Below the pieces are notes generated by a model, which saw nothing but the letters and a program-made list of their open reading frames with translations, had not been told where the DNA came from and did no database searches. Both the position numbers and the translations under genes were made by a program. Source: Escherichia coli (lineage in GTDB: Bacteria > Pseudomonadota > Gammaproteobacteria > Enterobacterales > Enterobacteriaceae). Taken from it: a stretch of DNA of 64,000 bases. Positions 1 through 64,000 of this stretch are shown here, one piece after another. The DNA lies in the NCBI RefSeq assembly GCF_003018255.1, contig NZ_CP027440.1; one strand, written 5' to 3'. Within the stretch, counting starts at the first letter, position 1; each line of letters starts with the position of its first letter.

Positions 1-289
1 ACGATTCATTAGTGAATTCTTAAACGAGGCATTTTCAAACAATTATCTTACAGATAAAAAAACCACAGTCGCAATTAAGAATCAGAACAATTCACTACAT
101 AACATTAATTACTAAGCATATACACCTCATTATTTTGCCACTATTAAGTTATTAACAGCACAATCGAGTCTTCCCCTCTGGCAAAATCTTATTCTGCAGA
201 CCTTCAAAACGCCGTCCTGGGGGAGTACATTGTTCTAAGCTGACTTCCACGGCAGGGAGTGGCGATAACAGCAAAAAAGGTCAAGATTC

Positions 290-1507
290 ATGTCCCCCAT
301 TGAAAAATCCAGCAAATTAGAGAATGTCTGTTACGACATCCGTGGTCCGGTGCTGAAAGAAGCAAAACGCCTGGAAGAAGAAGGTAACAAGGTACTGAAA
401 CTGAACATCGGCAACCCTGCCCCGTTCGGTTTTGACGCGCCAGATGAAATCCTCGTTGACGTGATTCGCAACCTGCCTACCGCTCAAGGGTATTGCGATT
501 CCAAAGGGCTTTACTCCGCGCGTAAAGCCATCATGCAGCACTACCAGGCTCGTGGCATGCGTGATGTTACCGTGGAAGATATTTACATCGGAAATGGTGT
601 ATCGGAGCTTATCGTTCAGGCAATGCAGGCATTGCTGAACAGCGGCGACGAAATGTTGGTTCCTGCACCTGATTACCCACTATGGACCGCGGCGGTTTCG
701 CTCTCCAGCGGTAAAGCGGTGCATTATCTTTGCGATGAATCCTCTGACTGGTTCCCGGACCTTGATGATATTCGCGCTAAAATTACGCCTCGTACGCGTG
801 GGATCGTTATTATCAACCCAAATAACCCAACCGGCGCGGTATATTCCAAAGAGCTTTTAATGGAGATAGTGGAGATTGCACGTCAGCATAATCTCATTAT
901 CTTCGCCGATGAAATTTATGACAAAATTCTCTACGACGACGCTGAGCATCACTCAATTGCGCCGCTGGCACCTGATCTGCTGACCATTACCTTTAACGGC
1001 CTGTCGAAAACATACCGCGTTGCAGGCTTCCGTCAGGGGTGGATGGTGTTGAACGGGCCGAAAAAACACGCCAAAGGCTACATCGAAGGTCTGGAAATGC
1101 TGGCTTCAATGCGCCTGTGTGCTAACGTTCCTGCGCAACACGCCATTCAGACCGCGCTGGGCGGTTATCAGAGCATCAGTGAATTTATTACCCCTGGCGG
1201 TCGTCTTTATGAGCAGCGTAACCGCGCATGGGAATTGATCAATGATATTCCGGGCGTTTCCTGCGTGAAACCTCGTGGTGCGCTGTACATGTTCCCGAAA
1301 ATCGACGCCAAACGCTTTAATATTCACGACGATCAGAAAATGGTGCTGGATTTCCTGTTGCAGGAAAAAGTTCTGTTGGTGCAAGGGACGGCATTCAACT
1401 GGCCGTGGCCGGATCACTTCCGCATTGTCACGCTACCGCGTGTCGATGATATCGAGCTGTCTTTGAGCAAGTTCGCGCGTTTCCTTTCTGGTTATCATCA
1501 GCTGTAA
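290..1507 (+). CDS. alaA: Glutamate-pyruvate aminotransferase AlaA (PLP-dependent class I aminotransferase)
   Basis: 405-aa ORF; translation recognised as AlaA/YfbQ; K-12 synteny (upstream of yfbR). Confidence 0.93.
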   Translation: MSPIEKSSKLENVCYDIRGPVLKEAKRLEEEGNKVLKLNIGNPAPFGFDAPDEILVDVIRNLPTAQGYCDSKGLYSARKAIMQHYQARGMRDVTVEDIYIGNGVSELIVQAMQALLNSGDEMLVPAPDYPLWTAAVSLSSGKAVHYLCDESSDWFPDLDDIRAKITPRTRGIVIINPNNPTGAVYSKELLMEIVEIARQHNLIIFADEIYDKILYDDAEHHSIAPLAPDLLTITFNGLSKTYRVAGFRQGWMVLNGPKKHAKGYIEGLEMLASMRLCANVPAQHAIQTALGGYQSISEFITPGGRLYEQRNRAWELINDIPGVSCVKPRGALYMFPKIDAKRFNIHDDQKMVLDFLLQEKVLLVQGTAFNWPWPDHFRIVTLPRVDDIELSLSKFARFLSGYHQL

Positions 1508-1590
1508 TCTTAATTTCACTGCCGGAGATTGCATCCGGCAGTGTTATCCCGCCACAATGACCTGATGATGTCATCATACGTAAGGTCACT

Positions 1591-2190
1591 ATGAAACAGA
1601 GCCATTTTTTTGCCCATCTCTCCCGCCTGAAACTCATTAACCGCTGGCCGCTAATGCGCAATGTGCGGACGGAAAATGTGTCCGAACACAGTTTGCAGGT
1701 AGCGATGGTCGCCCATGCGCTGGCAGCTATCAAAAATCGTAAATTTGGCGGTAATGTCAACGCCGAACGTATCGCTTTACTGGCGATGTACCACGATGCC
1801 TCAGAAGTGCTTACCGGCGATCTCCCTACCCCGGTGAAATACTTCAATTCGCAAATCGCTCAGGAATACAAGGCGATTGAAAAAATCGCTCAGCAAAAAC
1901 TGGTCGATATGGTTCCGGAAGAGTTGCGGGATATCTTTGCGCCGTTAATTGACGAGCATGCATATAGTGATGAAGAAAAATCACTGGTGAAACAGGCAGA
2001 TGCACTATGTGCATATCTGAAATGTCTGGAAGAACTCGCGGCGGGAAATAATGAATTCTTGCTGGCAAAAACGCGACTGGAAGCGACGCTTGAAGCGCGC
2101 CGCAGCCAGGAGATGGACTACTTCATGGAAGTCTTTGTTCCCAGCTTCCATCTTTCGCTCGATGAGATTAGCCAGGATTCACCGCTGTAA
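1591..2190 (+). CDS. yfbR: HD-domain 5'-deoxynucleotidase YfbR
   Basis: 199-aa ORF; HD motif context (..[16 protein letters not shown]..); synteny. Confidence 0.9.
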
Positions 2191-2198
2191 GCAGCCGG

Positions 2199-2245
2199 AG
2201 TCTGCGTCGCATCAGGCAATAAGCGCCGGATGCGACATCAGGCTC
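2199..2245. repeat. REP-like palindromic hairpin between convergent yfbR and yfbS
   Basis: gcgtcgcatcaggc ... gccggatgcgacatcaggc inverted repeat read in sequence. Confidence 0.5.
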
Positions 2246-2248
2246 TTG

Positions 2249-4081
2249 TCAAAACGGAAACAGCATCGGGATCATCACCACACAAACCGCCATCACGATA
2301 ATGGTGAACGGTACCCCCAACTTCACAAAGTCACTGAAGCTGTAATTTCCCGGACCTAAAACCAGTGTGTTAACAGGTGAAGAAACCGGCGTCATAAAGG
2401 CGGCGGATGCTGCCATCGCCACGACCATCGCGAATGGGTAAGGCGACACCCCCATCGTTTTAGCAGCAGCCAGCGCAATCGGAGCCATCAACACCGCCGT
2501 CGCGGTATTAGAAATAAATAGCCCAATAACCGCCGACAAGACAAACAAACAACCCAGCATCATATGTGGCCCGTAACCGCCGCCAATGTCCATCAGCCCT
2601 TTCACCGCCAGCGCAACACCTCCCGTTTTCTGTAATGCCACAGCAAACGGCATCATCCCAACGATCAAAATAATGCTCGGCCAGTGTATGGATTTATAGG
2701 CGCTTTCAGCATCGATACAGCGGAATTTCCCCATCAGCAGGCAGGCGATGATAGCGGCAACAGGATTAGGAATTTCATCGGTCAGCATTAACGCCACCAT
2801 TAGCACCAGACAGAAAATGGCATGGGGTGCCTGACTGTGCGCGGGCGATGCTTCACTCACCTCTTCCGGTAAGTTCAGCGCTACGAAGTCGCGGCCCTGT
2901 TTGGCCAGCATACCGATCAGTTTCCAGTTACCCACAACCAGGATGATATCGCCCAGCAGCAGAGGCTCATCCGCCAGCGAACCTTCCAGCGCCACGCCAT
3001 TGCGCTTTAGCCCCACTACATTCAATCCGTAGCGGGTACGAAAACCAATTTCGCGCACCGATTTACCAATAAGTTCTGACTCAGGAATTAATGAAATCTC
3101 TGCCATGCCCACATCAAGGGCCTGGTCAGAAAAATACTCGCCGCGCAGTACCATCGGCTCCAGCAATTGCTCACTACAAAATTGCCGGAGATCGACATCA
3201 GCCGCAGACATATCAATAAGCAAAACGTCACGCGCGCGAAATTCAGAAACCCCATTAACGTTCACGATAACGCGACGAAAACGCCGCCAGCGTTCAACAC
3301 CGATGACGTTAGCACCATAACGTTCACGTAATTTGAGATCGTCCAGTCGTTGACCAATCATTGGCGATCCGGGGCGAATAGCCAGACGTCGCGCACGCCC
3401 GGTCAGTCGATATTCACGGATAAGATCGCGAAAGGTTCGGCGCGTCCAGCCTTCGCGTTGTGGGGTCTGGGTATCCCCTTTCAGCATGAAACGCATCACT
3501 AACATATACAAAATACCCAGCACCAGCACGACCAGGCCAATAGGTGTTACGCTAAAGAAACTGAAGCCGTGATAGCCTTCACGCAGCAATTCACTGTTGA
3601 CTACCAGGTTCGGCGGCGTCGCCACCAGCGTCATCATGCCGCTTATCAGCCCGGCAAAACTTAACGGCATCATCAGACGCGACGGCGACGTTTGCATACG
3701 CATGGCAACGCTTAACACCACGGGAATAAAGATAGCGACAACGCCGGTTGAACTCATAAACGCGCCAAGCCCCGCGACGGTCAGCATCAACAAAACCAAC
3801 ATTTTGATTTCACTGTTGCCCGCCACTTTGACCAGCCATGTCCCCATTACAGTGGCAACACCGGTACGGACCAAACCATCGCCAATAATGAACAAGGCGG
3901 CAATCAGGACAACGTTAGGATCGGAAAAGCCGGAAAATACTTCGGGGACCGTCAGCGTTCCGCTTAATGCAAACGCGACAATAACAAACAAAGCGACCGC
4001 ATCCATACGCACTCTGCCCGTCGCAAACAAGACGATGGCAACGGCCAGTAATGAAAGAACCCAAATCAATTCACCGTTCAC
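2249..4081 (-). CDS. yfbS: Putative transporter YfbS
   Basis: 610-aa ORF, many hydrophobic segments with a central soluble region; recognised as YfbS; synteny. Confidence 0.88.
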
Positions 4082-4123
4082 AACTTATCCTTGTTAATTG
4101 AGGGGGATAACTTGATTCTGCCA

Positions 4124-4148
4124 TAAAAAAGCCCCGACGAGACGGGGC
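4124..4148 (-). terminator. Rho-independent terminator downstream of yfbT
   Basis: GC hairpin gccccgacgagacggggc; on minus strand followed by T-run. Confidence 0.75.
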
Positions 4149-4167
4149 TAAATCATGATCAGGTGTT

Positions 4168-4818
4168 TCACTGAATAATAACATCGCCATTTGGCTGTTT
4201 GGTCACAGTAATTTGCTCCAGACTGTGGAGGACCAAATCGACCTCATTCAGGCGCGGGGTATCTGCCGGAGCGTTAACCGCAATGACATGGCAACCCGCC
4301 GCCAGGCCAGAAAGCACGCCAGCGGGAGCATCTTCCACCACTACACACTCCTGCGGCGCAAGCCCCAGCAGCTGCGCGCCTAGCAGATACGCATCAGGTT
4401 CTGGTTTTCCGCGCTTCACTCGCTCAGCGGTCACAAACACCTCTGGCGCGGGAAGCCCAGCTATTTTATGGCGCGCTCGCGCTACCGGCATGGAGCCAGA
4501 AGTCACAATGGCCCACGGAATACCTGCTTTATTCAAATGATTGAGTAAGGCGATTGCCCCCGGAAGTGCGGTAATACCCTCGGTTTCCGTGGCCTCGATT
4601 TGCTCCAGACGCGTAAACTCGGCGGCAATATCAGCCTCGGATTTGCCCGCCATAAAATGGCGCAAAGAGGTGATCGCCTGTTTACCGTGAATAAAAGCCA
4701 GCACCTCTTCCGGCGCTAACCCATGACGTCTGGCCCAGTTGCTCCACGCCCGTTCTACCGCAGGCAGGGAATCCACCAGCGTTCCATCAAGATCAAACAG
4801 AAAACCTTTGCACCGCAC
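4168..4818 (-). CDS. yfbT: HAD-family sugar-phosphate phosphatase YfbT
   Basis: 216-aa ORF; HAD motif FDLDGTLVDS at N-terminus. Confidence 0.9.
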   Translation of the reverse strand: MRCKGFLFDLDGTLVDSLPAVERAWSNWARRHGLAPEEVLAFIHGKQAITSLRHFMAGKSEADIAAEFTRLEQIEATETEGITALPGAIALLNHLNKAGIPWAIVTSGSMPVARARHKIAGLPAPEVFVTAERVKRGKPEPDAYLLGAQLLGLAPQECVVVEDAPAGVLSGLAAGCHVIAVNAPADTPRLNEVDLVLHSLEQITVTKQPNGDVIIQ

Positions 4819-4828
4819 GCGGGCCTCC

Positions 4829-5386
<558 letters not shown>

Positions 5387-5406
5387 TATGCGTAATCAGG
5401 GGTCAA

Positions 5407-5862
5407 TTACAAATCATCAAGGAAAGTTTTATCCAGTTGTTTGAAGGCGCGCTTAAGCGTGTCAGCTAATGCCTGGTAATCAGGCTTGCCTTCAACGGGT
5501 GCCAACACCTGTCCAGACTCCTGCAATTTACCGCGAACTTCATAAAACCAGTTAAGGATTGCAGGGGGTAATGGCGTTACAGAACGTTTGCCCAGCCACC
5601 ACAATCCCTGCATGGGTAAACTTAAGGCGAACAGCGCAGTGGCAACTGCCGGCCCAAGCTGACCGCCCAGGGCAATCTGCCAGCAGAGAGTAAATACGGC
5701 GATCGGCGGCATAAAACGGATCGCATAACGCGTCATCTTGATAACGCGATTTTCGACAAAGACCGGGGCAAGGCGTTTTTCCAGCGGCCACGTCTTTGAG
5801 TAATGCTGTCCCCGGCGAAACAAGCTAAAAAAATTAACAGAACGATTATCCGGCGTTGACAT
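5407..5862 (-). CDS. yfbV: Inner-membrane protein YfbV
   Basis: 151-aa ORF; divergent from ackA as in K-12. Confidence 0.88.
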
Positions 5863-6199
5863 GCTTCACCTCAACTTCACATATAAAGATTCAAAAATTT
5901 GTGCAAATTCACAACTCAGCGGGACAACGTTCAAAACATTTTGTCTTCCATACCCACTATCAGGTATCCTTTAGCAGCCTGAAGGCCTAAGTAGTACATA
6001 TTCATTGAGTCGTCAAATTCATATACATTATGCCATTGGCTGAAAATTACGCAAAATGGCATAGACTCAAGATATTTCTTCCATCATGCAAAAAAAATTT
6101 GCAGTGCATGATGTTAATCATAAATGTCGGTGTCATCATGCGCTACGCTCTATGGCTCCCTGACGTTTTTTTAGCCACGTATCAATTATAGGTACTTCC

Positions 6200-7402
6200 A
6201 TGTCGAGTAAGTTAGTACTGGTTCTGAACTGCGGTAGTTCTTCACTGAAATTTGCCATCATCGATGCAGTAAATGGTGAAGAGTACCTTTCTGGTTTAGC
6301 CGAATGTTTCCACCTGCCCGAAGCACGTATCAAATGGAAAATGGACGGCAATAAACAGGAAGCGGCTTTAGGTGCAGGCGCCGCTCACAGCGAAGCGCTC
6401 AACTTTATCGTTAATACTATTCTGGCACAAAAACCAGAACTGTCTGCGCAGCTGACTGCTATCGGTCACCGTATCGTACACGGCGGCGAAAAGTATACCA
6501 GCTCCGTAGTGATCGATGAGTCTGTTATTCAGGGTATCAAAGATGCAGCTTCTTTTGCACCGCTGCACAACCCGGCTCACCTGATCGGTATCGAAGAAGC
6601 TCTGAAATCTTTCCCACAGCTGAAAGACAAAAACGTTGCTGTATTTGACACCGCGTTCCACCAGACTATGCCGGAAGAGTCTTACCTCTACGCCCTGCCG
6701 TACAACCTGTACAAAGAGCACGGCATCCGTCGTTACGGCGCGCACGGCACCAGCCACTTCTATGTAACCCAGGAAGCGGCAAAAATGCTGAACAAACCGG
6801 TAGAAGAACTGAACATCATCACCTGCCACCTGGGCAACGGTGGTTCCGTTTCTGCTATCCGCAACGGTAAATGCGTTGACACCTCTATGGGCCTGACCCC
6901 GCTGGAAGGTCTGGTCATGGGTACCCGTTCTGGTGATATCGATCCGGCGATCATCTTCCACCTGCACGACACCCTGGGCATGAGCGTTGACGCAATCAAC
7001 AAACTGCTGACCAAAGAGTCTGGCCTGCTGGGTCTGACCGAAGTGACCAGCGACTGCCGCTATGTTGAAGACAACTACGCGACGAAAGAAGACGCGAAGC
7101 GCGCAATGGACGTTTACTGCCACCGCCTGGCGAAATACATCGGTGCCTACACTGCGCTGATGGATGGTCGTCTGGACGCTGTTGTATTCACCGGTGGTAT
7201 CGGTGAAAATGCCGCGATGGTTCGTGAACTGTCTCTGGGCAAACTGGGCGTGCTGGGCTTTGAAGTTGATCATGAACGCAACCTGGCTGCACGTTTCGGC
7301 AAATCTGGTTTCATCAACAAAGAAGGTACCCGTCCTGCGGTGGTTATCCCAACCAACGAAGAACTGGTTATCGCGCAAGACGCGAGCCGCCTGACAGCCT
7401 GA
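6200..7402 (+). CDS. ackA: Acetate kinase
   Basis: 400-aa ORF; N-terminus [22 protein letters not shown]; followed by pta. Confidence 0.97.
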
Positions 7403-7476
7403 TTTCACACCGCCAGCTCAGCTGGCGGTGCTGTTTTGTAACCCGCCAAATCGGCGGTAACGAAAGAGGATAAACC

Positions 7477-9621
7477 GTGTCCCGTATTATTATGCTGATC
7501 CCTACCGGAACCAGCGTCGGTCTGACCAGCGTCAGCCTTGGCGTGATCCGTGCAATGGAACGCAAAGGCGTTCGTCTGAGCGTTTTCAAACCTATCGCTC
7601 AGCCGCGTACCGGTGGCGATGCGCCCGATCAGACTACGACTATCGTACGTGCGAACTCTTCCACTACGACGGCCGCTGAACCGCTGAAAATGAGCTACGT
7701 TGAAGGTCTGCTTTCCAGCAATCAGAAAGATGTGCTGATGGAAGAGATCGTCGCAAACTACCACGCTAACACCAAAGACGCTGAAGTCGTTCTGGTTGAA
7801 GGTCTGGTCCCGACACGTAAGCACCAGTTTGCCCAGTCTCTGAACTACGAAATCGCTAAAACGCTGAATGCGGAAATCGTCTTCGTTATGTCTCAGGGCA
7901 CTGACACCCCGGAACAGCTGAAAGAGCGTATCGAACTGACCCGCAACAGCTTCGGCGGTGCCAAAAACACCAACATCACCGGCGTTATCGTTAACAAACT
8001 GAATGCACCGGTTGATGAACAGGGCCGTACTCGCCCGGATCTGTCCGAGATTTTCGACGACTCTTCCAAAGCTAAAGTAAACAATGTTGATCCGGCGAAG
8101 CTGCAAGAATCCAGCCCGCTGCCGGTTCTCGGCGCAGTGCCGTGGAGCTTTGACCTGATCGCGACTCGTGCGATCGATATGGCTCGCCACCTGAATGCGA
8201 CCATCATCAACGAAGGCGACATCAATACTCGCCGCGTTAAATCCGTCACTTTCTGCGCACGCAGCATTCCGCACATGCTGGAGCACTTCCGTGCCGGTTC
8301 TCTGCTGGTGACTTCCGCAGACCGTCCTGACGTGCTGGTTGCCGCGTGCCTGGCTGCCATGAACGGCGTAGAAATCGGTGCCCTGCTGCTGACTGGCGGC
8401 TACGAAATGGACGCGCGCATTTCTAAACTGTGCGAACGTGCTTTCGCTACCGGCCTGCCGGTATTTATGGTGAACACCAACACCTGGCAGACTTCTCTGA
8501 GCCTGCAGAGCTTCAACCTGGAAGTTCCGGTTGACGATCACGAGCGTATCGAGAAAGTTCAGGAATACGTTGCTAACTACATCAACGCTGACTGGATCGA
8601 TTCTCTGACGGCCACTTCTGAGCGCAGCCGTCGTCTGTCTCCGCCAGCGTTCCGTTATCAGCTGACTGAACTTGCGCGCAAAGCGGGCAAACGTATCGTT
8701 CTGCCGGAAGGTGACGAACCGCGTACCGTTAAGGCAGCCGCTATCTGTGCTGAACGTGGTATCGCAACTTGCGTACTGCTGGGTAATCCGGCAGAGATCA
8801 ACCGTGTTGCAGCGTCTCAGGGTGTAGAACTGGGTGCAGGCATTGAAATCGTTGATCCAGAAGTGGTTCGCGAAAGCTATGTTGGTCGTCTGGTCGAGCT
8901 GCGTAAGAACAAAGGCATGACCGAAACCGTTGCCCGCGAACAGCTGGAAGATAACGTGGTTCTCGGTACGCTGATGCTGGAACAGGATGAAGTTGATGGT
9001 CTGGTTTCCGGTGCTGTTCACACTACCGCAAACACCATCCGTCCGCCGCTGCAGCTGATCAAAACTGCACCGGGCAGCTCCCTGGTATCTTCCGTGTTCT
9101 TCATGCTGCTGCCGGAACAGGTTTACGTTTACGGTGACTGTGCGATCAACCCGGATCCGACCGCAGAACAGCTGGCAGAAATCGCGATTCAGTCCGCAGA
9201 TTCCGCTGCGGCCTTCGGTATCGAACCGCGCGTTGCTATGCTCTCCTACTCCACCGGGACTTCTGGTGCTGGTAGCGACGTAGAAAAAGTTCGCGAAGCA
9301 ACTCGTCTGGCGCAGGAAAAACGTCCTGACCTGATGATCGACGGTCCGCTGCAGTACGACGCTGCGGTAATGGCTGACGTTGCGAAATCCAAAGCACCGA
9401 ACTCTCCGGTTGCAGGTCGCGCTACCGTGTTCATCTTCCCGGATCTGAACACCGGTAACACCACCTACAAAGCGGTACAGCGTTCTGCTGACCTGATCTC
9501 TATCGGACCGATGCTGCAGGGTATGCGCAAGCCGGTTAACGACCTGTCCCGTGGCGCACTGGTTGACGATATCGTCTACACCATCGCGCTGACTGCGATT
9601 CAGTCTGCACAGCAGCAGTAA
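7477..9621 (+). CDS. pta: Phosphate acetyltransferase
   Basis: 714-aa ORF; recognised Pta; ackA-pta operon. Confidence 0.97.
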
Positions 9622-55394: not shown

Positions 55395-56150
55395 TTATTC
55401 AGAATCGATATCTTTTAAATCATCCTGAATCGCTTGCGCGTTCGGATTTTCCTGCGGTTTGAGTTCGCCGCCATTAGCGATGAAATCATGACGCTGGAAG
55501 TACGCTTCGCGCACCATAATATAAGGATCGGACGACTGACGCAGCAGACCATCGGAATCCAACAACTGCGCACGAGTTTCTATCCCTTCAAGCGTCCATT
55601 TACCCACAGACATCGGCCAGGTCAGCCAGGAAAGAACCGGGTAAAGACCATCCGCCATATCACCACCGTCATCACGCAGCGTGAAGCTACCGTAGAACGG
55701 TAACTGAACGTATGGCCCATAACCCACACCATAATGACCAAGCGTACTACCGAAGCGGTGAGGTTCAGTCCGTTGCAGTTTCGGGTTCGCCATCCCTGCA
55801 ACATCAATAAAGCCGCCCATCCCCAAAATGGTGTTCAGGAAAAAGCGGGTAAAGTGGACCATCCCCTGATAAGGGTCGCCCTGCAAGAAGTAGTTAACCA
55901 TCACCGCAGGTTCTTCAAGGTTGCCAGTAAAGTTGCTCAAACCGTTACGCGCCGGTTGCGGAACATAATCACGCCAGGCGACAGCGACCGGTCGAACAAT
56001 ATACGGGTCTAATACATTGAAATTGAAGTTGTACATGGTGCGGTTGAACCCTTCTAGCGGGTCAGAACGCCCTTGCTGATCTGTACCGGAACTCGCACAC
56101 CCCACCAGAAGCGTAGTTCCCAGAGCAAGCGCCGACAGGCGAAGCTTCAT
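55395..56150 (-). CDS. mlaA: Outer-membrane lipoprotein MlaA (VacJ)
   Basis: 251-aa ORF; lipobox LLVGCASS. Confidence 0.93.
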   Translation of the reverse strand: MKLRLSALALGTTLLVGCASSGTDQQGRSDPLEGFNRTMYNFNFNVLDPYIVRPVAVAWRDYVPQPARNGLSNFTGNLEEPAVMVNYFLQGDPYQGMVHFTRFFLNTILGMGGFIDVAGMANPKLQRTEPHRFGSTLGHYGVGYGPYVQLPFYGSFTLRDDGGDMADGLYPVLSWLTWPMSVGKWTLEGIETRAQLLDSDGLLRQSSDPYIMVREAYFQRHDFIANGGELKPQENPNAQAIQDDLKDIDSE

Positions 56151-56443
56151 AAATGTCTCCCTGTTTTTTTATGGCTTATGCAGTTTGCCATCCATGACGG
56201 AACGATACCGTATCCGCCTGTTTAGGTGTGGGCGATTGTAACAGCACGTCAACTGATGTCCAGACGCCCTGATTTGCTGATTTGATCATAGCCTGGTAAT
56301 CGCCGCCCTGTAGGCTACTTGATTCTATAGAAACAGAAAAAGGCAAACGCAGCCTTTTCTACATTTTCAGAGTAACTCCCGCCAGTTGCGAGCAAAAAAG
56401 CCGCTACGCTTTAGCTATACGTGCTAATTCAAGAGAAGAGACC

Positions 56444-57376
56444 ATGGACAACGACAAAATTGATCAACACAGCGACGAAATTGAAGTTGAGAGCGAAGAA
56501 AAAGAGCGCGGCAAAACAATAGAAATAGATGAAGATCGACTCCCCTCCCGGGCGATGGCAATTCATGAGCATATCCGCCAGGATGGTGAAAAAGAGCTGG
56601 AACGCGACGCAATGGCACTACTGTGGTCAGCCATTGCGGCGGGTCTGTCGATGGGCGCTTCGCTACTGGCAAAAGGGATATTTCATGTCGAACTGGAAGG
56701 CGTGCCGGGCAGCTTCTTGCTGGAGAATCTCGGTTATACCTTTGGTTTTATTATCGTCATTATGGCCCGCCAGCAATTATTTACCGAAAACACCGTGACT
56801 GCGGTACTACCCGTCATGCAAAAACCGACAATGAGCAACGTTGGCTTACTTATGCGGTTATGGGGCGTCGTGCTGCTGGGTAATATTCTCGGGACAGGTA
56901 TTGCGGCGTGGGCATTTGAATATATGCCAATCTTCAATGAAGAAACTCGCGATGCATTTGTCAAAATCGGCATGGATGTGATGAAGAACACCCCCAGCGA
57001 GATGTTTGCCAACGCGATCATTTCCGGCTGGCTGATCGCCACTATGGTTTGGATGTTTCCTGCAGCGGGTGCGGCAAAGATTGTGGTGATTATATTGATG
57101 ACCTGGCTTATTGCCCTGGGTGACACCACTCACATCGTTGTCGGTTCTGTTGAAATCCTCTATCTGGTGTTTAACGGTACGCTGCACTGGAGCGATTTCA
57201 TCTGGCCCTTCGCACTACCTACTTTAGCGGGGAACATCTGCGGCGGCACCTTTATCTTCGCGTTAATGAGTCATGCACAGATCCGTAACGACATGAGCAA
57301 CAAGCGCAAAGCAGAAGCACGCCAAAAAGCAGAACGTGCGGAAAACATTAAGAAAAATGATAAAAACCCGGCATAA
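56444..57376 (+). CDS. yfdC: Formate/nitrite transporter-family inner membrane protein YfdC
   Basis: 310-aa ORF; synteny immediately upstream of argW. Confidence 0.88.
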   Translation: MDNDKIDQHSDEIEVESEEKERGKTIEIDEDRLPSRAMAIHEHIRQDGEKELERDAMALLWSAIAAGLSMGASLLAKGIFHVELEGVPGSFLLENLGYTFGFIIVIMARQQLFTENTVTAVLPVMQKPTMSNVGLLMRLWGVVLLGNILGTGIAAWAFEYMPIFNEETRDAFVKIGMDVMKNTPSEMFANAIISGWLIATMVWMFPAAGAAKIVVIILMTWLIALGDTTHIVVGSVEILYLVFNGTLHWSDFIWPFALPTLAGNICGGTFIFALMSHAQIRNDMSNKRKAEARQKAERAENIKKNDKNPA

Positions 57377-57451
57377 ATGGCGAGGGTTTAAGCAATCGAG
57401 CGGCAGCGTACTTACCCCGCAGTCCATTAGCGGGTATACTCATGCCGCATT

Positions 57452-57526
57452 GTCCTCTTAGTTAAATGGATATAACGAGCCCCTCCTAAGGGCTAATTGC
57501 AGGTTCGATTCCTGCAGGGGACACCA
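57452..57526 (+). tRNA. argW: tRNA-Arg (anticodon CCU)
   Basis: 75-nt sequence read directly, matches argW as recalled; anticodon loop cuCCUaa; ends ..ACACCA. Confidence 0.95.
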
Positions 57527-57646
57527 GATACCCTTCAAACCAAATCTACCTTCACCCCGTAAAAGATGGGTTTGGCAGCACACTTGCCCTATATCTACTC
57601 ATTTTTACTGCAACAGGTTGAAATCTCAGCACTGTCAGAAAGCGCT

Positions 57647-57888
57647 GATGACTAAACAGCCCTGGGCCGGGCGATGTAACCATCATACAGAATCCTGATA
57701 GCGAAATATGGCGTGACTCGATACTTCACTCTGCAATGCATTCCTTGATGAATTCGCAGGCCCGTGATACACGGGACACGTGGCTGAATGACGACAATGT
57801 CCTGGAAATCAGCGAACCGCGTATCCGGAGTACATTTGAGCGACTGTACCAGAACATGAATGAGGCGTTTGGATTAGGTGATTATTAG
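57647..57888 (+). other. Orphan reading-frame fragment of unknown origin
   Basis: open frame of ~79 codons ending ..NDDNVLEISEPRIRSTFERLYQNMNEAFGLGDY*; no convincing start or RBS identified. Confidence 0.3.
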
Positions 57889-57967
57889 CAGGGGTAAGCA
57901 TTTTTGTATTATTATTTTCCGGTTGAGGGATATGGAGATATCGACAACAACCGGAAAAAGTTTACGT

Positions 57968-59215
57968 CTATATTGCTGAAGGTACAGGCGTTTCCATAAC
58001 TATTTGCTCGCGTTTTTTACTCAGGAAGAAAATGCCAAATAGCAACATCAGGCAGACAATACCCGAAATTGCGAAGAAAACTGTCTGGTAGCCTGCGTGG
58101 TCAAAGAGTATCCCAGTCGGCGTTGAAAGCAGCACAATCCCAAGCGAACTGGCAATTTGAAAACCAATCAGAAAGATCGTCGACGACAGGCGCTTATCAA
58201 AGTTTGCCACGCTGTATTTGAAGACGGATATGACACAAAGTGGAACCTCAATGGCATGTAACAGCTTCACTAATGAAATAATCCAGGGGTTAACGAACAG
58301 CGCGCAGGAAAGGATACGCAACGCCATAATCACAACACCGATAAGTAATGCATTTTTTGGCCCTACCCGATTCACAAAGAAAGGAATAATCGCCATGCAC
58401 AGCGCTTCGAGTACCACCTGGAATGAGTTGAGATAACCATACAGGCGCGTTCCTACATCGTGTGATTCGAATAAACCTGCATAAAAGACAGGAAAGAGTT
58501 GTTGATCAAAAATGTTATAGAAAGACCACGTCCCCACAATAAATATGACAAAAACCCAGAAGTTTCGATCCTTGAAAACTGCGATAAAATCCTCTTTTTT
58601 TACCCCTCCCGCATCCGCCGCTATGCACTGGTGATCCTTATCTTTAAAACGCATGTTGATCATCATAAATACAGCGCCAAATAGCGAGACCAACCAGAAG
58701 TTGATATGGGGACTGATACTAAAAAATATACCAGCAAAGAACGCGCCAATAGCATAGCCAAAAGATCCCCAGGCGCGCGCTGTTCCATATTCGAAATGAA
58801 AATTTCGCGCCATTTTTTCGGTGAAGCTGTCAAGCAAACCGCATCCCGCCAGATACCCCAGGCCAAAAAAGAGCGCCCCCAGAATTAGACCTACAGAAAA
58901 ATTGCTTTGCAGTAACGGTTCATAAACGTAAATCATAAACGGTCCGGTCAAGACCAGAATGAAACTCATACACCAGATGAGCGGTTTCTTCAGACCGAGT
59001 TTATCCTGAACGATGCCGTAGAACATCATAAATAGAATGCTGGTAAACTGGTTGACCGAATAAAGTGTACCTAATTCCGTCCCTGTTAATCCTAGATGTC
59101 CTTTCAGCCAAATAGCGTATAACGACCACCACAGCGACCAGGAAATAAAAAAGAGAAATGAGTAACTGGATGCAAAACGATAGTACGCATTTCTGAATGG
59201 AATATTCAGTGCCAT
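57968..59215 (-). CDS. cscB: Sucrose:H+ symporter (MFS)
   Basis: 415-aa ORF; MALNIPFRNAYYRFASSYSFLFF.. recognised as CscB. Confidence 0.93.
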   Translation of the reverse strand: MALNIPFRNAYYRFASSYSFLFFISWSLWWSLYAIWLKGHLGLTGTELGTLYSVNQFTSILFMMFYGIVQDKLGLKKPLIWCMSFILVLTGPFMIYVYEPLLQSNFSVGLILGALFFGLGYLAGCGLLDSFTEKMARNFHFEYGTARAWGSFGYAIGAFFAGIFFSISPHINFWLVSLFGAVFMMINMRFKDKDHQCIAADAGGVKKEDFIAVFKDRNFWVFVIFIVGTWSFYNIFDQQLFPVFYAGLFESHDVGTRLYGYLNSFQVVLEALCMAIIPFFVNRVGPKNALLIGVVIMALRILSCALFVNPWIISLVKLLHAIEVPLCVISVFKYSVANFDKRLSSTIFLIGFQIASSLGIVLLSTPTGILFDHAGYQTVFFAISGIVCLMLLFGIFFLSKKREQIVMETPVPSAI

Positions 59216-59286
59216 AATTACCTGCCTGTCGTTAAAAAATTCATGTCCTATTTAGAGATAAGAGCGGCCTCGCCGTTTACTTCTCA

Positions 59287-60201
59287 CTATTCCAGTTCTT
59301 GTCGACATGGCAGCGCTGTCATCGCCCCTTTCGCCGTTACTGCAAGCGCTCCGCAACGTTGAGCGAGATCGATAATTCGTCGCATTTCTCTTTCATCTGT
59401 AGATAATCCCGTAGAGGACAGACCTGTGAGTAACCCGGCAACGAACGCATCTCCCGCCCCCGTGCTATCGACACAATTCACAGACATTCCAGCAAAATGG
59501 TGAACTTGTCCTCGATAACAGACCACCACCCCTTCTGCACCTTTAGTCACCAACAGCATGGCGATCTCATACTCTTTTGCCAGGGCGCATATATCCCAAT
59601 CGTTCTGTGTTTTTCCACTGATAAGTCGCCATTCTTCTTCCGAGAGCTTGACGACATCCGCCAGTTGTAGCGCCTGCCGCAAACACAAGCGGAGCAAATG
59701 CTCGTCTTGCCATAGATCTTCACGAATATTGGGATCGAAGCTGACAAAACCTCCGGCATGCCGGATCGCCGTCATCGCAGTAAATGCGCTGGTACGCGAA
59801 GGCTCGGCAGACAACGCAATTGAACAGAGATGTAACCATTCGCCATGTCGCCAGCAGGGCAAGTCTGTCGTCTCTAAAAAAAGATCGGCACTGGGGCGGA
59901 CCATAAACGTAAATGAACGTTCTCCTTGATCGTTCAGATCGACAAGCACCGTGGATGTCCGGTGCCATTCATCTTGCTTCAGATACGTGATATCGACACC
60001 CTCAGTTAGCAGCGTTCTTTGCATTAACGCACCAAAAGGATCATCACCGACCCGACCTATAAACCCACTTGTTCCGCCTAATCTGGCGATTCCCACCGCA
60101 ACGTTAGCTGGCGCGCCGCCAGGACAAGGTAGTAGCCGCCCGTCTGATTCTGGCAAGAGATCTACGACCGCATCCCCTAAAACCCATACTTTGGCTGACA
60201 T
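59287..60201 (-). CDS. cscK: Fructokinase (PfkB family)
   Basis: 304-aa ORF; ribokinase-family motifs (..DSTGAGDAF..). Confidence 0.9.
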   Translation of the reverse strand: MSAKVWVLGDAVVDLLPESDGRLLPCPGGAPANVAVGIARLGGTSGFIGRVGDDPFGALMQRTLLTEGVDITYLKQDEWHRTSTVLVDLNDQGERSFTFMVRPSADLFLETTDLPCWRHGEWLHLCSIALSAEPSRTSAFTAMTAIRHAGGFVSFDPNIREDLWQDEHLLRLCLRQALQLADVVKLSEEEWRLISGKTQNDWDICALAKEYEIAMLLVTKGAEGVVVCYRGQVHHFAGMSVNCVDSTGAGDAFVAGLLTGLSSTGLSTDEREMRRIIDLAQRCGALAVTAKGAMTALPCRQELE

Positions 60202-60306
60202 TTTTTTCCCTTAAATTCATCTGACTTACGCATAGTGATAAACCTCTTTTTCGCAAAATCGTCATGGATTTACTAAAACATGCATATTCGATCACAAAAC
60301 GTCATA

Positions 60307-60318
60307 GTTAACGTTAAC
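60307..60318. promoter_or_regulatory. Putative CscR operator 1 (perfect 12-bp palindrome)
   Basis: gttaacgttaac in the cscK-cscA divergent intergenic region. Confidence 0.5.
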
Positions 60319-60370
60319 ATTTGTGATATTCATCGCATTTATGAAAGTAAGGGACTTTATTTTTATAAAA

Positions 60371-60382
60371 GTTAACGTTAAC
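60371..60382. promoter_or_regulatory. Putative CscR operator 2 (same 12-bp palindrome)
   Basis: second exact copy of gttaacgttaac, 64 bp from the first, ~35 bp upstream of cscA start. Confidence 0.5.
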
Positions 60383-60416
60383 AATTCACCCAATTTGCTT
60401 AACCAGGATGATAAAA

Positions 60417-61850
60417 ATGACGCAATCTCGATTACATGCGGCGCAAAACGCACTAGCAAAACTTCACGAGCGCCGAGGTAACACTTTCTATCCCCATTTT
60501 CACCTCGCGCCTCCCGCCGGGTGGATGAACGATCCAAACGGCCTAATCTGGTTTAACGATCGTTATCACGCGTTTTATCAACATCACCCGATGAGCGAAC
60601 ACTGGGGGCCAATGCACTGGGGACATGCCACCAGCGACGATATGATCCACTGGCAGCATGAGCCTATTGCGCTAGCGCCAGGAGACGAGAATGACAAAGA
60701 CGGGTGTTTTTCAGGTAGTGCTGTCGATGACAATGGTGTCCTCTCACTTATCTACACCGGACACGTCTGGCTCGATGGTGCAGGTAATGACGATGCAATT
60801 CGCGAAGTACAATGTCTGGCTACCAGTCGGGATGGTATTCATTTCGAGAAACAGGGTGTGATCCTCACTCCACCAGAAGGCATCATGCACTTCCGCGATC
60901 CTAAAGTGTGGCGTGAAGCCGACACATGGTGGATGGTAGTCGGGGCGAAAGATCCAGGCAACACGGGGCAGATCCTGCTTTATCGCGGCAGTTCATTGCG
61001 TGAATGGACTTTCGATCGCGTACTGGCCCACGCTGATGCGGGTGAAAGCTATATGTGGGAATGTCCGGACTTTTTCAGCCTTGGCGATCAGCATTATCTG
61101 ATGTTTTCCCCGCAGGGAATGAATGCCGAGGGATACAGTTACCGAAATCGCTTTCAAAGTGGCGTAATACCCGGAATGTGGTCGCCAGGACGACTTTTTG
61201 CACAATCCGGGCATTTTACTGAACTTGATAGCGGGCATGACTTTTATGCACCACAAAGCTTTTTAGCGAAGGATGGTCGGCGTATTGTTATCGGCTGGAT
61301 GGATATGTGGGAATCGCCAATGCCCTCAAAACGTGAAGGCTGGGCAGGCTGCATGACGCTGGCGCGCGAGCTATCAGAGAGCAATGGCAAACTTCTACAA
61401 CGCCCGGTACACGAAGCTGAGTCGTTACGCCAGCAGCATCAATCTATCTCTCCCCGCACAATCAGCAATAAATATGTTTTGCAGGAAAACGCGCAAGCAG
61501 TTGAGATTCAGCTGCAGTGGGCGTTGAAGAACAGTGATGCCGAACATTACGGATTACAGCTCGGCACTGGAATGCGGCTGTATATTGATAACCAATCTGA
61601 GCGACTTGTTTTGTGGCGGTATTACCCACACGAGAATTTAGATGGCTACCGTAGTATTCCCCTCCCGCAGGGTGACATGCTCGCCCTAAGGATATTTATC
61701 GATACATCATCCGTGGAAGTATTTATTAACGACGGGGAGGCGGTGATGAGTAGCCGAATATATCCGCAGCCAGAAGAACGGGAACTGTCGCTCTATGCCT
61801 CCCACGGAGTGGCTGTGCTGCAACATGGAGCACTCTGGCAACTGGGTTAA
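60417..61850 (+). CDS. cscA: Sucrose-6-phosphate hydrolase / invertase (GH32)
   Basis: 477 aa from MTQSRLHAAQN..; GH32 N-terminal motif WMNDPNG. Confidence 0.93.
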   Translation: MTQSRLHAAQNALAKLHERRGNTFYPHFHLAPPAGWMNDPNGLIWFNDRYHAFYQHHPMSEHWGPMHWGHATSDDMIHWQHEPIALAPGDENDKDGCFSGSAVDDNGVLSLIYTGHVWLDGAGNDDAIREVQCLATSRDGIHFEKQGVILTPPEGIMHFRDPKVWREADTWWMVVGAKDPGNTGQILLYRGSSLREWTFDRVLAHADAGESYMWECPDFFSLGDQHYLMFSPQGMNAEGYSYRNRFQSGVIPGMWSPGRLFAQSGHFTELDSGHDFYAPQSFLAKDGRRIVIGWMDMWESPMPSKREGWAGCMTLARELSESNGKLLQRPVHEAESLRQQHQSISPRTISNKYVLQENAQAVEIQLQWALKNSDAEHYGLQLGTGMRLYIDNQSERLVLWRYYPHENLDGYRSIPLPQGDMLALRIFIDTSSVEVFINDGEAVMSSRIYPQPEERELSLYASHGVAVLQHGALWQLG

Positions 61851-61857
61851 CATAATA

Positions 61858-62853
61858 TCAGGTGGAACAACGGATCAACAGCGGGCAAGGGATCCGCGTC
61901 ACTCTTCCCCCTTCACGATCTTCAATAATATGCAATGCAGCTTCCCGCCCGATAATGTCATGTGGAAGCTGAATTGTGGTCAGCGGCGGTAAAAACAGAT
62001 GCCCGACGCCAACCAGATTATCAAAGCCCATTACGGCGACATCCTGCGGGATACGTACCCCCTTCGCCAGGAGAACCTGATAAGCGACAAAGGCTGCGCG
62101 ATCGTTACCACATATCAGAACATCAAAATCTGGTTTGCCCGATTTGAAGTGGTCATTGAGTAAACTTGCGAGATCGGTGTAGTGATCATCACCTGTTGCC
62201 ATGTGAAATTGTTTCACCTCAGCCAGATCTCGTCCAGCATCACGCCAGGCCTGCTCAAATCCCTGCCGACGATACCCTGTTGCCAACGCACTTTCCGGTA
62301 GCCAGAAGCATAACGGTTGACGATAGCCCGCCGCGAGCAAATGCTGTGTTGATTCATATTGTGCAGTGTAATCATCAGGGATATAACTGGGTAACGCTGG
62401 GTCATCCGCCACACAGTTCGCCAATACAATATTTTCACCATACAGAGACTCAGGCAGCGAGATATGTCGCAGCCCCATTGTAGTATAGATAATGCCATCC
62501 GGACGGTGGGCAAGCAGCTGACGTGCCGCGCGGGCAGCGTCATCTTCAGAAAAAATATTGATTAAAAAACTATTCCAGCCAAACTCGCTGGCGGTTTGCT
62601 CAATGGCAAGCAGAATATCAACAGAGAAAGGAGTGGTGGCCGTGTCCTGCGCCAGCACGGCGAGAGTCGACGGCTTACGTCCTTGAGCGCGCATCTTACG
62701 GGCGGAAAGATCAGGAACATAATTCAGGGTCTGGATTGCCTGCAATACGCGGTCACGCGTTGCAGGACGCACAGATTCTGCATTATGCATCACCCGGGAG
62801 ACTGTCATCATCGACACTCCCGCCAGGCGTGCGACATCCTTTAATGAAGCCAT
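61858..62853 (-). CDS. cscR: LacI-family sucrose operon repressor
   Basis: 332 aa from MASLKDVARLAGVSMMTVSRV (HTH); ORF track over-extended upstream to 63051. Confidence 0.9.
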   Translation of the reverse strand: MASLKDVARLAGVSMMTVSRVMHNAESVRPATRDRVLQAIQTLNYVPDLSARKMRAQGRKPSTLAVLAQDTATTPFSVDILLAIEQTASEFGWNSFLINIFSEDDAARAARQLLAHRPDGIIYTTMGLRHISLPESLYGENIVLANCVADDPALPSYIPDDYTAQYESTQHLLAAGYRQPLCFWLPESALATGYRRQGFEQAWRDAGRDLAEVKQFHMATGDDHYTDLASLLNDHFKSGKPDFDVLICGNDRAAFVAYQVLLAKGVRIPQDVAVMGFDNLVGVGHLFLPPLTTIQLPHDIIGREAALHIIEDREGGRVTRIPCPLLIRCST

Positions 62854-63095
62854 ACCCAAGCCGTTTGCCGTAAAACGGGCACTGTAGCAGAAACAGACGT
62901 CACTGGCGAGATCCAACGATATTCTCAACGCCCTATCACCCGACACGGCAATACAATAAAAAATAACAATAATTCCCGGACAATTGTACCCAATTCCGCC
63001 TCTGTTCTCGCCAACGAGTAACCATGTAGGCAAGTAGGTAAAACATGCCAACTGGCATCGCCAACCTGGAGAAGAAAATATAAATATGGATCATT

Positions 63096-63314
63096 GTGCT
63101 GCCGCTGTATCCCGACATCAGTCCGGAAATTATTGCGATTGCTATCGGTTCAGGTGCGATTGGCTGCACGATCGTTACGGACTCGCTTTTCTGGCTGGTG
63201 AAGCAATATTGCGGCGCTACGCTCAATGAAACATTTAAATACTATACGACAGCGACATTTATCGCTTCAGTCGTCGCTCTGGCGGGCACATTCCTGCTGT
63301 CATTTATCATCTAA
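63096..63314 (+). pseudogene. dsdX: 3' remnant of D-serine transporter gene dsdX (last ~72 codons)
   Basis: translation ..[71 protein letters not shown] matches DsdX C-terminus; no N-terminal part upstream. Confidence 0.85.
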
Positions 63315-63331
63315 GCGCAAAGAGACGTACT

Positions 63332-64000
63332 ATGGAAAACGCTAAAATGAACTCGCTCATCGCCCAGTATCCGTTGGTAAAGGATCTGGTTGCTCTTAAA
63401 GAAACCACCTGGTTTAATCCTGGCACGACCTCATTGGCTGAAGGTTTACCTTATGTTGGCCTGACCGAACAGGATGTTCAGGACGCCCATGCGCGCTTAT
63501 CCCGTTTTGCACCCTATCTGGCAAAAGCATTTCCTGAAACTGCTGCTACTGGGGGGATTATTGAATCAGAACTGGTTGCCATTCCGGCTATGCAAAAACG
63601 GCTGGAAAAGGAATATCAACAACCGATCAGCGGGCAACTGCTACTGAAAAAAGATAGCCATTTGCCCATTTCCGGCTCCATAAAAGCACGCGGCGGGATT
63701 TATGAAGTCCTGGCACATGCAGAAAAACTGGCTCTGGAAGCGGGGTTGCTGACGCTTGAAGATGACTACAGCAAACTGCTTTCTCCGGAGTTTAAACAGT
63801 TCTTTAGTCAATACAGCATTGCTGTGGGCTCAACCGGAAATCTGGGGTTATCAATCGGCATTATGAGCGCCCGCATTGGCTTTAAGGTGACAGTACATAT
63901 GTCTGCTGATGCCCGGGCATGGAAAAAAGCGAAACTGCGCAGCCATGGCGTTACGGTCGTGGAATATGAGCAAGATTATGGTGTTGCAGTCGAGGAAGGA
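63332..64000 (+). CDS. dsdA: D-serine dehydratase (5' partial; continues past window end)
   Basis: [31 protein letters not shown]..; PLP-lysine region ..SGSIKARGG. Confidence 0.95.

Follow-up and report, generated by a model that had tools for sequence, protein, structure and literature searches.

The window analysed here, a 64,000-nucleotide stretch of an Escherichia coli contig (NZ_CP027440.1), ends in a set of sucrose utilization (csc) genes joined to the remains of the D-serine (dsd) locus. The left boundary of this arrangement is argW, a tRNA-Arg(CCU) gene on the plus strand (57452-57526) identified by ARAGORN and by the Rfam tRNA model (63.4 bits). Searches with the K-12 left flank (blastn) revealed that the mlaA-yfdC-argW synteny of K-12 extends to the 3' end of argW, with 57526 as the last matching base, and blastn comparison of K-12 MG1655 with the window located the end of homology at this same base and its restart at 63097. 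The intervening 5.57-kb block (57527-63096) contains a DUF4942 remnant followed by cscB, cscK, cscA and cscR. The remnant, a short plus-strand ORF with a DUF4942 domain (57706-57888), occupies the position of z3622 in EHEC, is annotated equivalently in the closest complete genome and is colinear with O157:H7; it is the remnant of a mobile element and constitutes the left end of the inserted block. Within the window, no distal copy of the argW 3' end that could bound the block as an att-like repeat was found with up to two mismatches allowed, and an Rfam search of positions 56000-64000 returned no RNA elements other than argW.

The four csc genes are full length, adjoin argW and follow the order B-K / A / R of the csc regulon, with profile scores that pass or approach the family cut-offs. 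On the minus strand, cscB (57968-59215, 415 aa) encodes a sucrose:H+ symporter of the oligosaccharide MFS transporter type (TIGR00882, 594.6 bits against a cut-off of 220), which some RefSeq genomes annotate as cscB, and cscK (59287-60201, 304 aa) encodes a fructokinase (NF006957, 505.9 bits against 450). They are followed by cscA (60417-61850, plus strand, 477 aa), whose assignment as sucrose hydrolase (invertase) relies on TIGR01322 (478.1 bits against 356.4) and on annotation, and by cscR (61858-62853, minus strand, 331 aa), which encodes the LacI-family repressor of the csc genes according to the ORF list, LacI-family profiles and the RefSeq name "sucrose operon repressor CscR". Among these genes, cscA is the sole upstream gene sharing the strand of dsdA, while cscR faces cscA in convergent orientation and points away from the dsdX fragment and dsdA. 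Growth on sucrose has been reported for strains carrying the csc locus (PMC3032704, PMC13054288). A TTG-initiated ORF of 397 aa on the minus strand (61858-63051) was also considered and rejected as a separate or longer gene, since it is cscR, with its ATG at 62853, extended in frame upstream.

The right end of the inserted block consists of the cscR upstream region (62854-63095), which alignments and blastn showed to be devoid of homology to K-12 dsd DNA. The csc block meets dsdX codon 374 at a breakpoint between 63096 and 63097 that is the same in every csc-positive genome examined, with the joined sequences (...GGATCATTG on the csc side, TGCTGCCG... on the dsdX side) matching base for base in the window, its closest relative, O157:H7 493/89 and O128:H27 90-9281. 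Two overlapping terminator-like hairpins followed by T runs lie on the minus strand upstream of cscR (63045-63066), within the csc block and 30-50 bp from its right end, and they may once have terminated a gene of the donor context that has been lost. Some csc-positive genomes, O128:H27 90-9281 and E105 (loci L004 and L011) among them, carry a 12-bp deletion in the cscR-dsdX fragment intergenic region (window 62919-62930), and their match to the junction spans 469 bp as against 481 bp in the window.

Immediately beyond the breakpoint lies a plus-strand dsdX fragment (63096-63314) comprising the last 72 codons and the stop, as supported by the ORF list, profile search and alignment to K-12, and described by PGAP as "incomplete; missing N-terminus". 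The best-scoring profile for this fragment is that of DsdX, ahead of GntP, GntT and other gluconate-transporter profiles, and the alignment to the DsdX equivalog NF007395 covers profile positions 374-445 of 445 (E 1.6e-42). The score of 146 bits lies far below the whole-protein cut-off of 618, as five-sixths of DsdX are missing, and the fragment hence does not qualify as a full-length DsdX. Its orthology to DsdX is nonetheless well established by identity to K-12 DsdX residues 374-445 at 71 of 72 positions, by the 98.5% DNA identity of the segment 63097-64000 to K-12 dsdX-dsdA and by its syntenic location directly upstream of dsdA. The only difference from K-12 is a GTG (Val) in place of the internal Met374 ATG. 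Given that homology begins at 63097, the G at 63096 derives from the inserted side and the GTG start is a by-product of the junction, which bears out the description, in an earlier note on this DNA, of the last ~72 dsdX codons preceded by an incidental GTG.

The fragment is a C-terminal pseudogene piece rather than a functional DsdX member, and PGAP flagged it as a pseudogene in all ten csc-positive genomes inspected. The frame is open, has a GTG start, contains hydrophobic segments and yields a protein sequence common to eight of the ten sampled csc-positive genomes, as might be expected if it were translated into a small membrane protein serving some independent function. We regard this as scarcely credible, because the frame is simply inherited from dsdX, no Shine-Dalgarno-like sequence precedes the GTG (upstream sequence AAATATGGATCATTGTG), the annotation is that of a pseudogene and the EC581 lineage presents five amino acid changes in the first 20 codons. 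These substitutions in EC581 (locus L010, 1737-1955), compared with at most one in each of the other nine csc-positive genomes, are consistent with relaxed constraint or with a small recombined patch.

The pseudogene fragment is followed, after the same 17-bp spacer as in K-12, by dsdA, which encodes D-serine ammonia-lyase and starts with an ATG at 63332 on the plus strand. The window end cuts the gene, leaving the first 223 of about 442 codons (63332-64000). K-12 DsdA residues 1-223 align to this segment at 99.6% identity (tblastn), and the N-terminal half of the protein exceeds the cut-offs of both TIGR02035 (386.9 bits against 368.25), which places it in that family, and NF002823 (359.6 bits against 246). 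The PLP-binding lysine, Lys118, is present in the SGSIKARGG motif. The earlier impression of an intact dsdA thus holds for the 222 complete codons that run without a stop, but only half of the gene lies within the window; judging from its closest relatives, the gene is probably complete beyond this point, and the closest relative has a full-length dsdA. In JNE112863 (locus L001, 9933-11264), dsdA has 443 codons versus 442 in K-12, being 3 bp longer, and ends in ...EEMEQYLAKGRS where K-12 has ...EEEMNQYLAKGR, in the region past the window end. Among sampled csc-positive genomes, dsdA is intact in nine out of ten; in the exception, O111:H8 05-3004 (locus L008, 1973-3301), dsdA is interrupted by a stop at codon 197 and annotated as a pseudogene, which shows that the orphan gene decays in some lineages.

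The remainder of the D-serine operon is absent. No match to K-12 DsdC was detected by tblastn anywhere in the 64-kb window, no second dsdX was found there beyond the fragment with K-12 DsdX as the tblastn query, and blastn with K-12 DNA did not find the dsdC-dsdX intergenic promoter region in it. The K-12 dsdC-dsdX DNA matches only 63097-64000, and the locus consequently lacks the composition of a dsdCXA operon. These results substantiate the reported absence of dsdC. The two observations that would have spoken against the truncation, a fragment that failed to align to dsdX and a dsdC or full-length dsdX adjacent to this dsdA, were both looked for, and the fragment does align to dsdX while the window contains neither of the latter.

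Comparison with intact dsdCXA loci delimits what has been lost. The window shares with K-12 and the UPEC strain CFT073 the 3' end of dsdX, the 17-bp spacer and the 5' half of dsdA, at 98.5% identity to K-12, but is without dsdC, the divergent dsdC-dsdX control region and dsdX codons 1-373. In K-12 the CPS-53 prophage is located between argW and dsdC, and none of the content of the K-12 argW-dsdX interval (CPS-53, dsdC, the control region and dsdX codons 1-373) was found in the 64-kb window by tblastn or blastn. In contrast, EC3132, E. coli W and O157:H7 EDL933 present the same order of argW, remnant ORF, cscB, cscK, cscA, cscR, dsdX fragment and dsdA, with the same breakpoint at dsdX codon 374, an arrangement for which PMC4366372, PMC3032704 and PMC13054288 cite Jahreis et al. 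2002 and Moritz and Welch 2006. The window differs from this type of locus by allelic changes only, and its segment 57527-64000 is colinear with O157:H7 493/89 at 98.6% DNA identity over 6.47 kb. The argW-csc-dsdX fragment-dsdA arrangement is an already known and experimentally characterised polymorphism of E. coli.

Two further genomes illustrate other events at the locus. In O157:H7, argW is separated from the DUF4942 remnant by an extra element carrying a recombinase gene, which the window does not have. In O157:H7 493/89, homology to the window begins inside a 23-bp copy of the argW 3' end (locus L003, 1146-1168), and the recombinase element upstream of this copy indicates that the argW site has been used repeatedly. 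In 22AR0118 (locus L005, 1067-3181), an IS1A element in dsdX has also left a 3' dsdX fragment before an intact dsdA; the breakpoint and the mechanism differ from those in the window, as dsdC and the 5' part of dsdX are kept and there are no csc genes. This independent IS1A hit indicates that E. coli has undergone more than one kind of disruption at the dsdX locus.

The distribution of the junction was assessed with a 481-bp query (62860-63340) on 5426 complete E. coli genomes. The query was covered at 80% or more in 2658 of them, O157:H7 included, and in the other genomes with a match the alignment is confined to the part after the breakpoint, starting at query position 238 (window 63097). K-12 dsdC and the 5' part of dsdX, in turn, were found in 2771 of the 5426 genomes. 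With 2658 genomes bearing the junction and 2771 bearing dsdC, the two states are nearly mutually exclusive and each accounts for approximately half of the species, the window strain belonging to the csc-positive half. The closest complete genomes are JNE112863 and DETEC-S792 (99.9% over 6.6 kb and 99.7% over 25 kb), and the best match to the window among the complete genomes of the collection is 99.7% over 25 kb. The identical breakpoint and the colinear block point to a single ancestral event, followed by spread or by inheritance.

The two counts add up to 5429, three more than the genomes searched, implying that at least a few genomes hold both states. Two-copy strains do exist: UTI89 has two places matching the junction query, CE10 has two copies according to PMC7486766, and PMC3032704 and PMC7486766 cite Moritz and Welch 2006 for second intact dsdCXA copies in K1 strains. 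A second, intact dsdCXA elsewhere in the genome would render the window strain D-serine-positive despite its truncated copy, yet the overlap of csc and dsdC states in the population amounts to at most a few percent, and JNE112863 and DETEC-S792 each have one place matching the query with the dsdX fragment and dsdA. We thus consider a second locus in this strain highly improbable. Even DsdC supplied in trans would leave the window copy of dsdA without the DsdC-dependent promoter.

Taken together, these results make it very nearly certain that csc genes have replaced dsdC and most of dsdX, leaving a dsdX stub and a regulator-less dsdA, with sucrose use but no D-serine use as the expected phenotype. 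Under the proposed history, a single ancient recombination at the argW hotspot would have exchanged dsdC, the dsdC-dsdX control region and dsdX codons 1-373 for the 5.57-kb block. In the intact locus, as reflected in PMC4366372, dsdX and dsdA are co-transcribed from a DsdC- and D-serine-activated promoter situated between dsdC and dsdX. With both the dsdC gene and the promoter upstream of dsdX deleted, inducible expression of dsdA in cis is impossible. The claim that dsdA had lost its activator and its native promoter context is accordingly correct for DsdC and the DsdC-dependent promoter, but the 236 bp directly upstream of dsdA (63096-63331) are native dsdX sequence. Any remaining transcription of the gene would be weak and constitutive at best, and the cell would be expected to use sucrose but neither to grow on D-serine nor to detoxify it.

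Experiments published for E. coli W and EHEC EDL933/TUV93-0, which carry the same junction, agree with this reading. In EDL933 the csc locus substitutes dsdC and part of dsdX, and wild-type EHEC does not grow on D-serine as sole carbon source unless dsdA is provided in trans (PMC4366372). E. coli W carries the same csc insertion and has lost D-serine use (PMC3032704). A triplex PCR on cscR, dsdX and dsdA types the two states, and D-serine use consistently tracks the dsd configuration (PMC13054288). PMC7486766 further reports that D-serine inhibits the growth of EHEC, that wild-type EHEC dsdA is "inactive", with native-upstream reporter fusions at background (63-134 RFU), and that CscR does not directly repress dsdA. 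By analogy with these strains, the strain from which the window derives is expected to be sucrose-positive and D-serine-sensitive. Little or no inducible deaminase and sensitivity to D-serine, as predicted in the earlier note, are hence what identical-junction strains display (PMC4366372, PMC3032704, PMC13054288 and PMC7486766). The trade-off between sucrose and D-serine use that it invoked is likewise supported, both by the presence of csc in place of dsdC and the 5' five-sixths of dsdX and by the published strains. This csc/dsd switch at argW is a textbook metabolic trade-off shaping E. coli niche and pathotype, in which the use of sucrose in the gut is weighed against the tolerance of D-serine in urine and brain; repression of the LEE type III secretion system by D-serine also belongs to it.

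Whether dsdA is expressed had been left as an open question, with read-through from the cscR promoter region offered as an example. The latter is geometrically impossible, since cscR (61858-62853) is a minus-strand gene whose transcription proceeds away from dsdA. The broader question has largely been answered in EHEC, where dsdA is silent unless deletions bring cscAp or z3622p upstream of it (PMC7486766). According to the same paper, spontaneous deletions of cscR or of the whole csc block place dsdA under cscAp or z3622p, with reporter fusions then reaching 2001 RFU for cscAp and 257 RFU for z3622p, and the cells regain D-serine catabolism but forfeit the use of sucrose.

An orphan dsdA that is not fully silent could nevertheless be envisaged by either of two routes, sucrose-induced read-through from the CscR-repressed cscA promoter or a weak dsdA-proximal promoter retained in the fragment, and either would yield some D-serine deaminase activity and explain the retention of an intact dsdA in nine of the ten sampled csc-positive genomes. 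The first route benefits from the layout of the locus, as cscA and dsdA share a strand and no plus-strand terminator-like site occurs between the cscA stop (61850) and 63280; the sole such site (63280-63299) belongs to native dsdX and recurs in the dsdXA operon of K-12, whose genes are co-transcribed. Moreover, PMC7486766 shows that cscAp can drive dsdA once the intervening DNA is shortened, and its wild-type reporter was assayed in MEM-HEPES, with sucrose going unmentioned in the relevant passages. Against this, transcripts from cscAp would have to traverse approximately 1.48 kb of untranslated RNA antisense to cscR, facing convergent cscR transcription, and over this distance they would probably be terminated prematurely in a Rho-dependent manner. 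No sigma-70-like promoter was detected in 60150-63340 by a crude consensus scan, which weak promoters could escape. Wild-type EHEC, with the same arrangement, shows only background reporter activity and no D-serine catabolism (PMC7486766). We therefore deem residual expression by one route or the other unlikely, and expression of dsdA in wild-type csc-positive E. coli through sucrose-induced cscAp read-through across antisense cscR and the dsdX fragment somewhat less likely still.

The substitution pattern of dsdA might also be taken to argue for continued expression, as the pairwise dN/dS among dsdA alleles of the sampled csc-positive genomes is approximately 0.11. The dsdX fragment, used as a pseudogene control, yields a similar pN/pS of 0.20, albeit on very few sites, and the dsdA ratio was consequently rejected as evidence of selection after the insertion; it may largely reflect ancestral or recombined variation. 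If read-through were to take place, the csc insertion would have rewired D-serine deaminase from D-serine to sucrose control instead of silencing it, and sucrose-driven read-through would account for the intact dsdA of most csc-positive genomes. Replacement with silencing of dsdA remains our preferred reading. With regard to the reactivating deletions of EHEC, the 8-bp repeat CCGGATAA of one of them reads CCGGACAA in the window.
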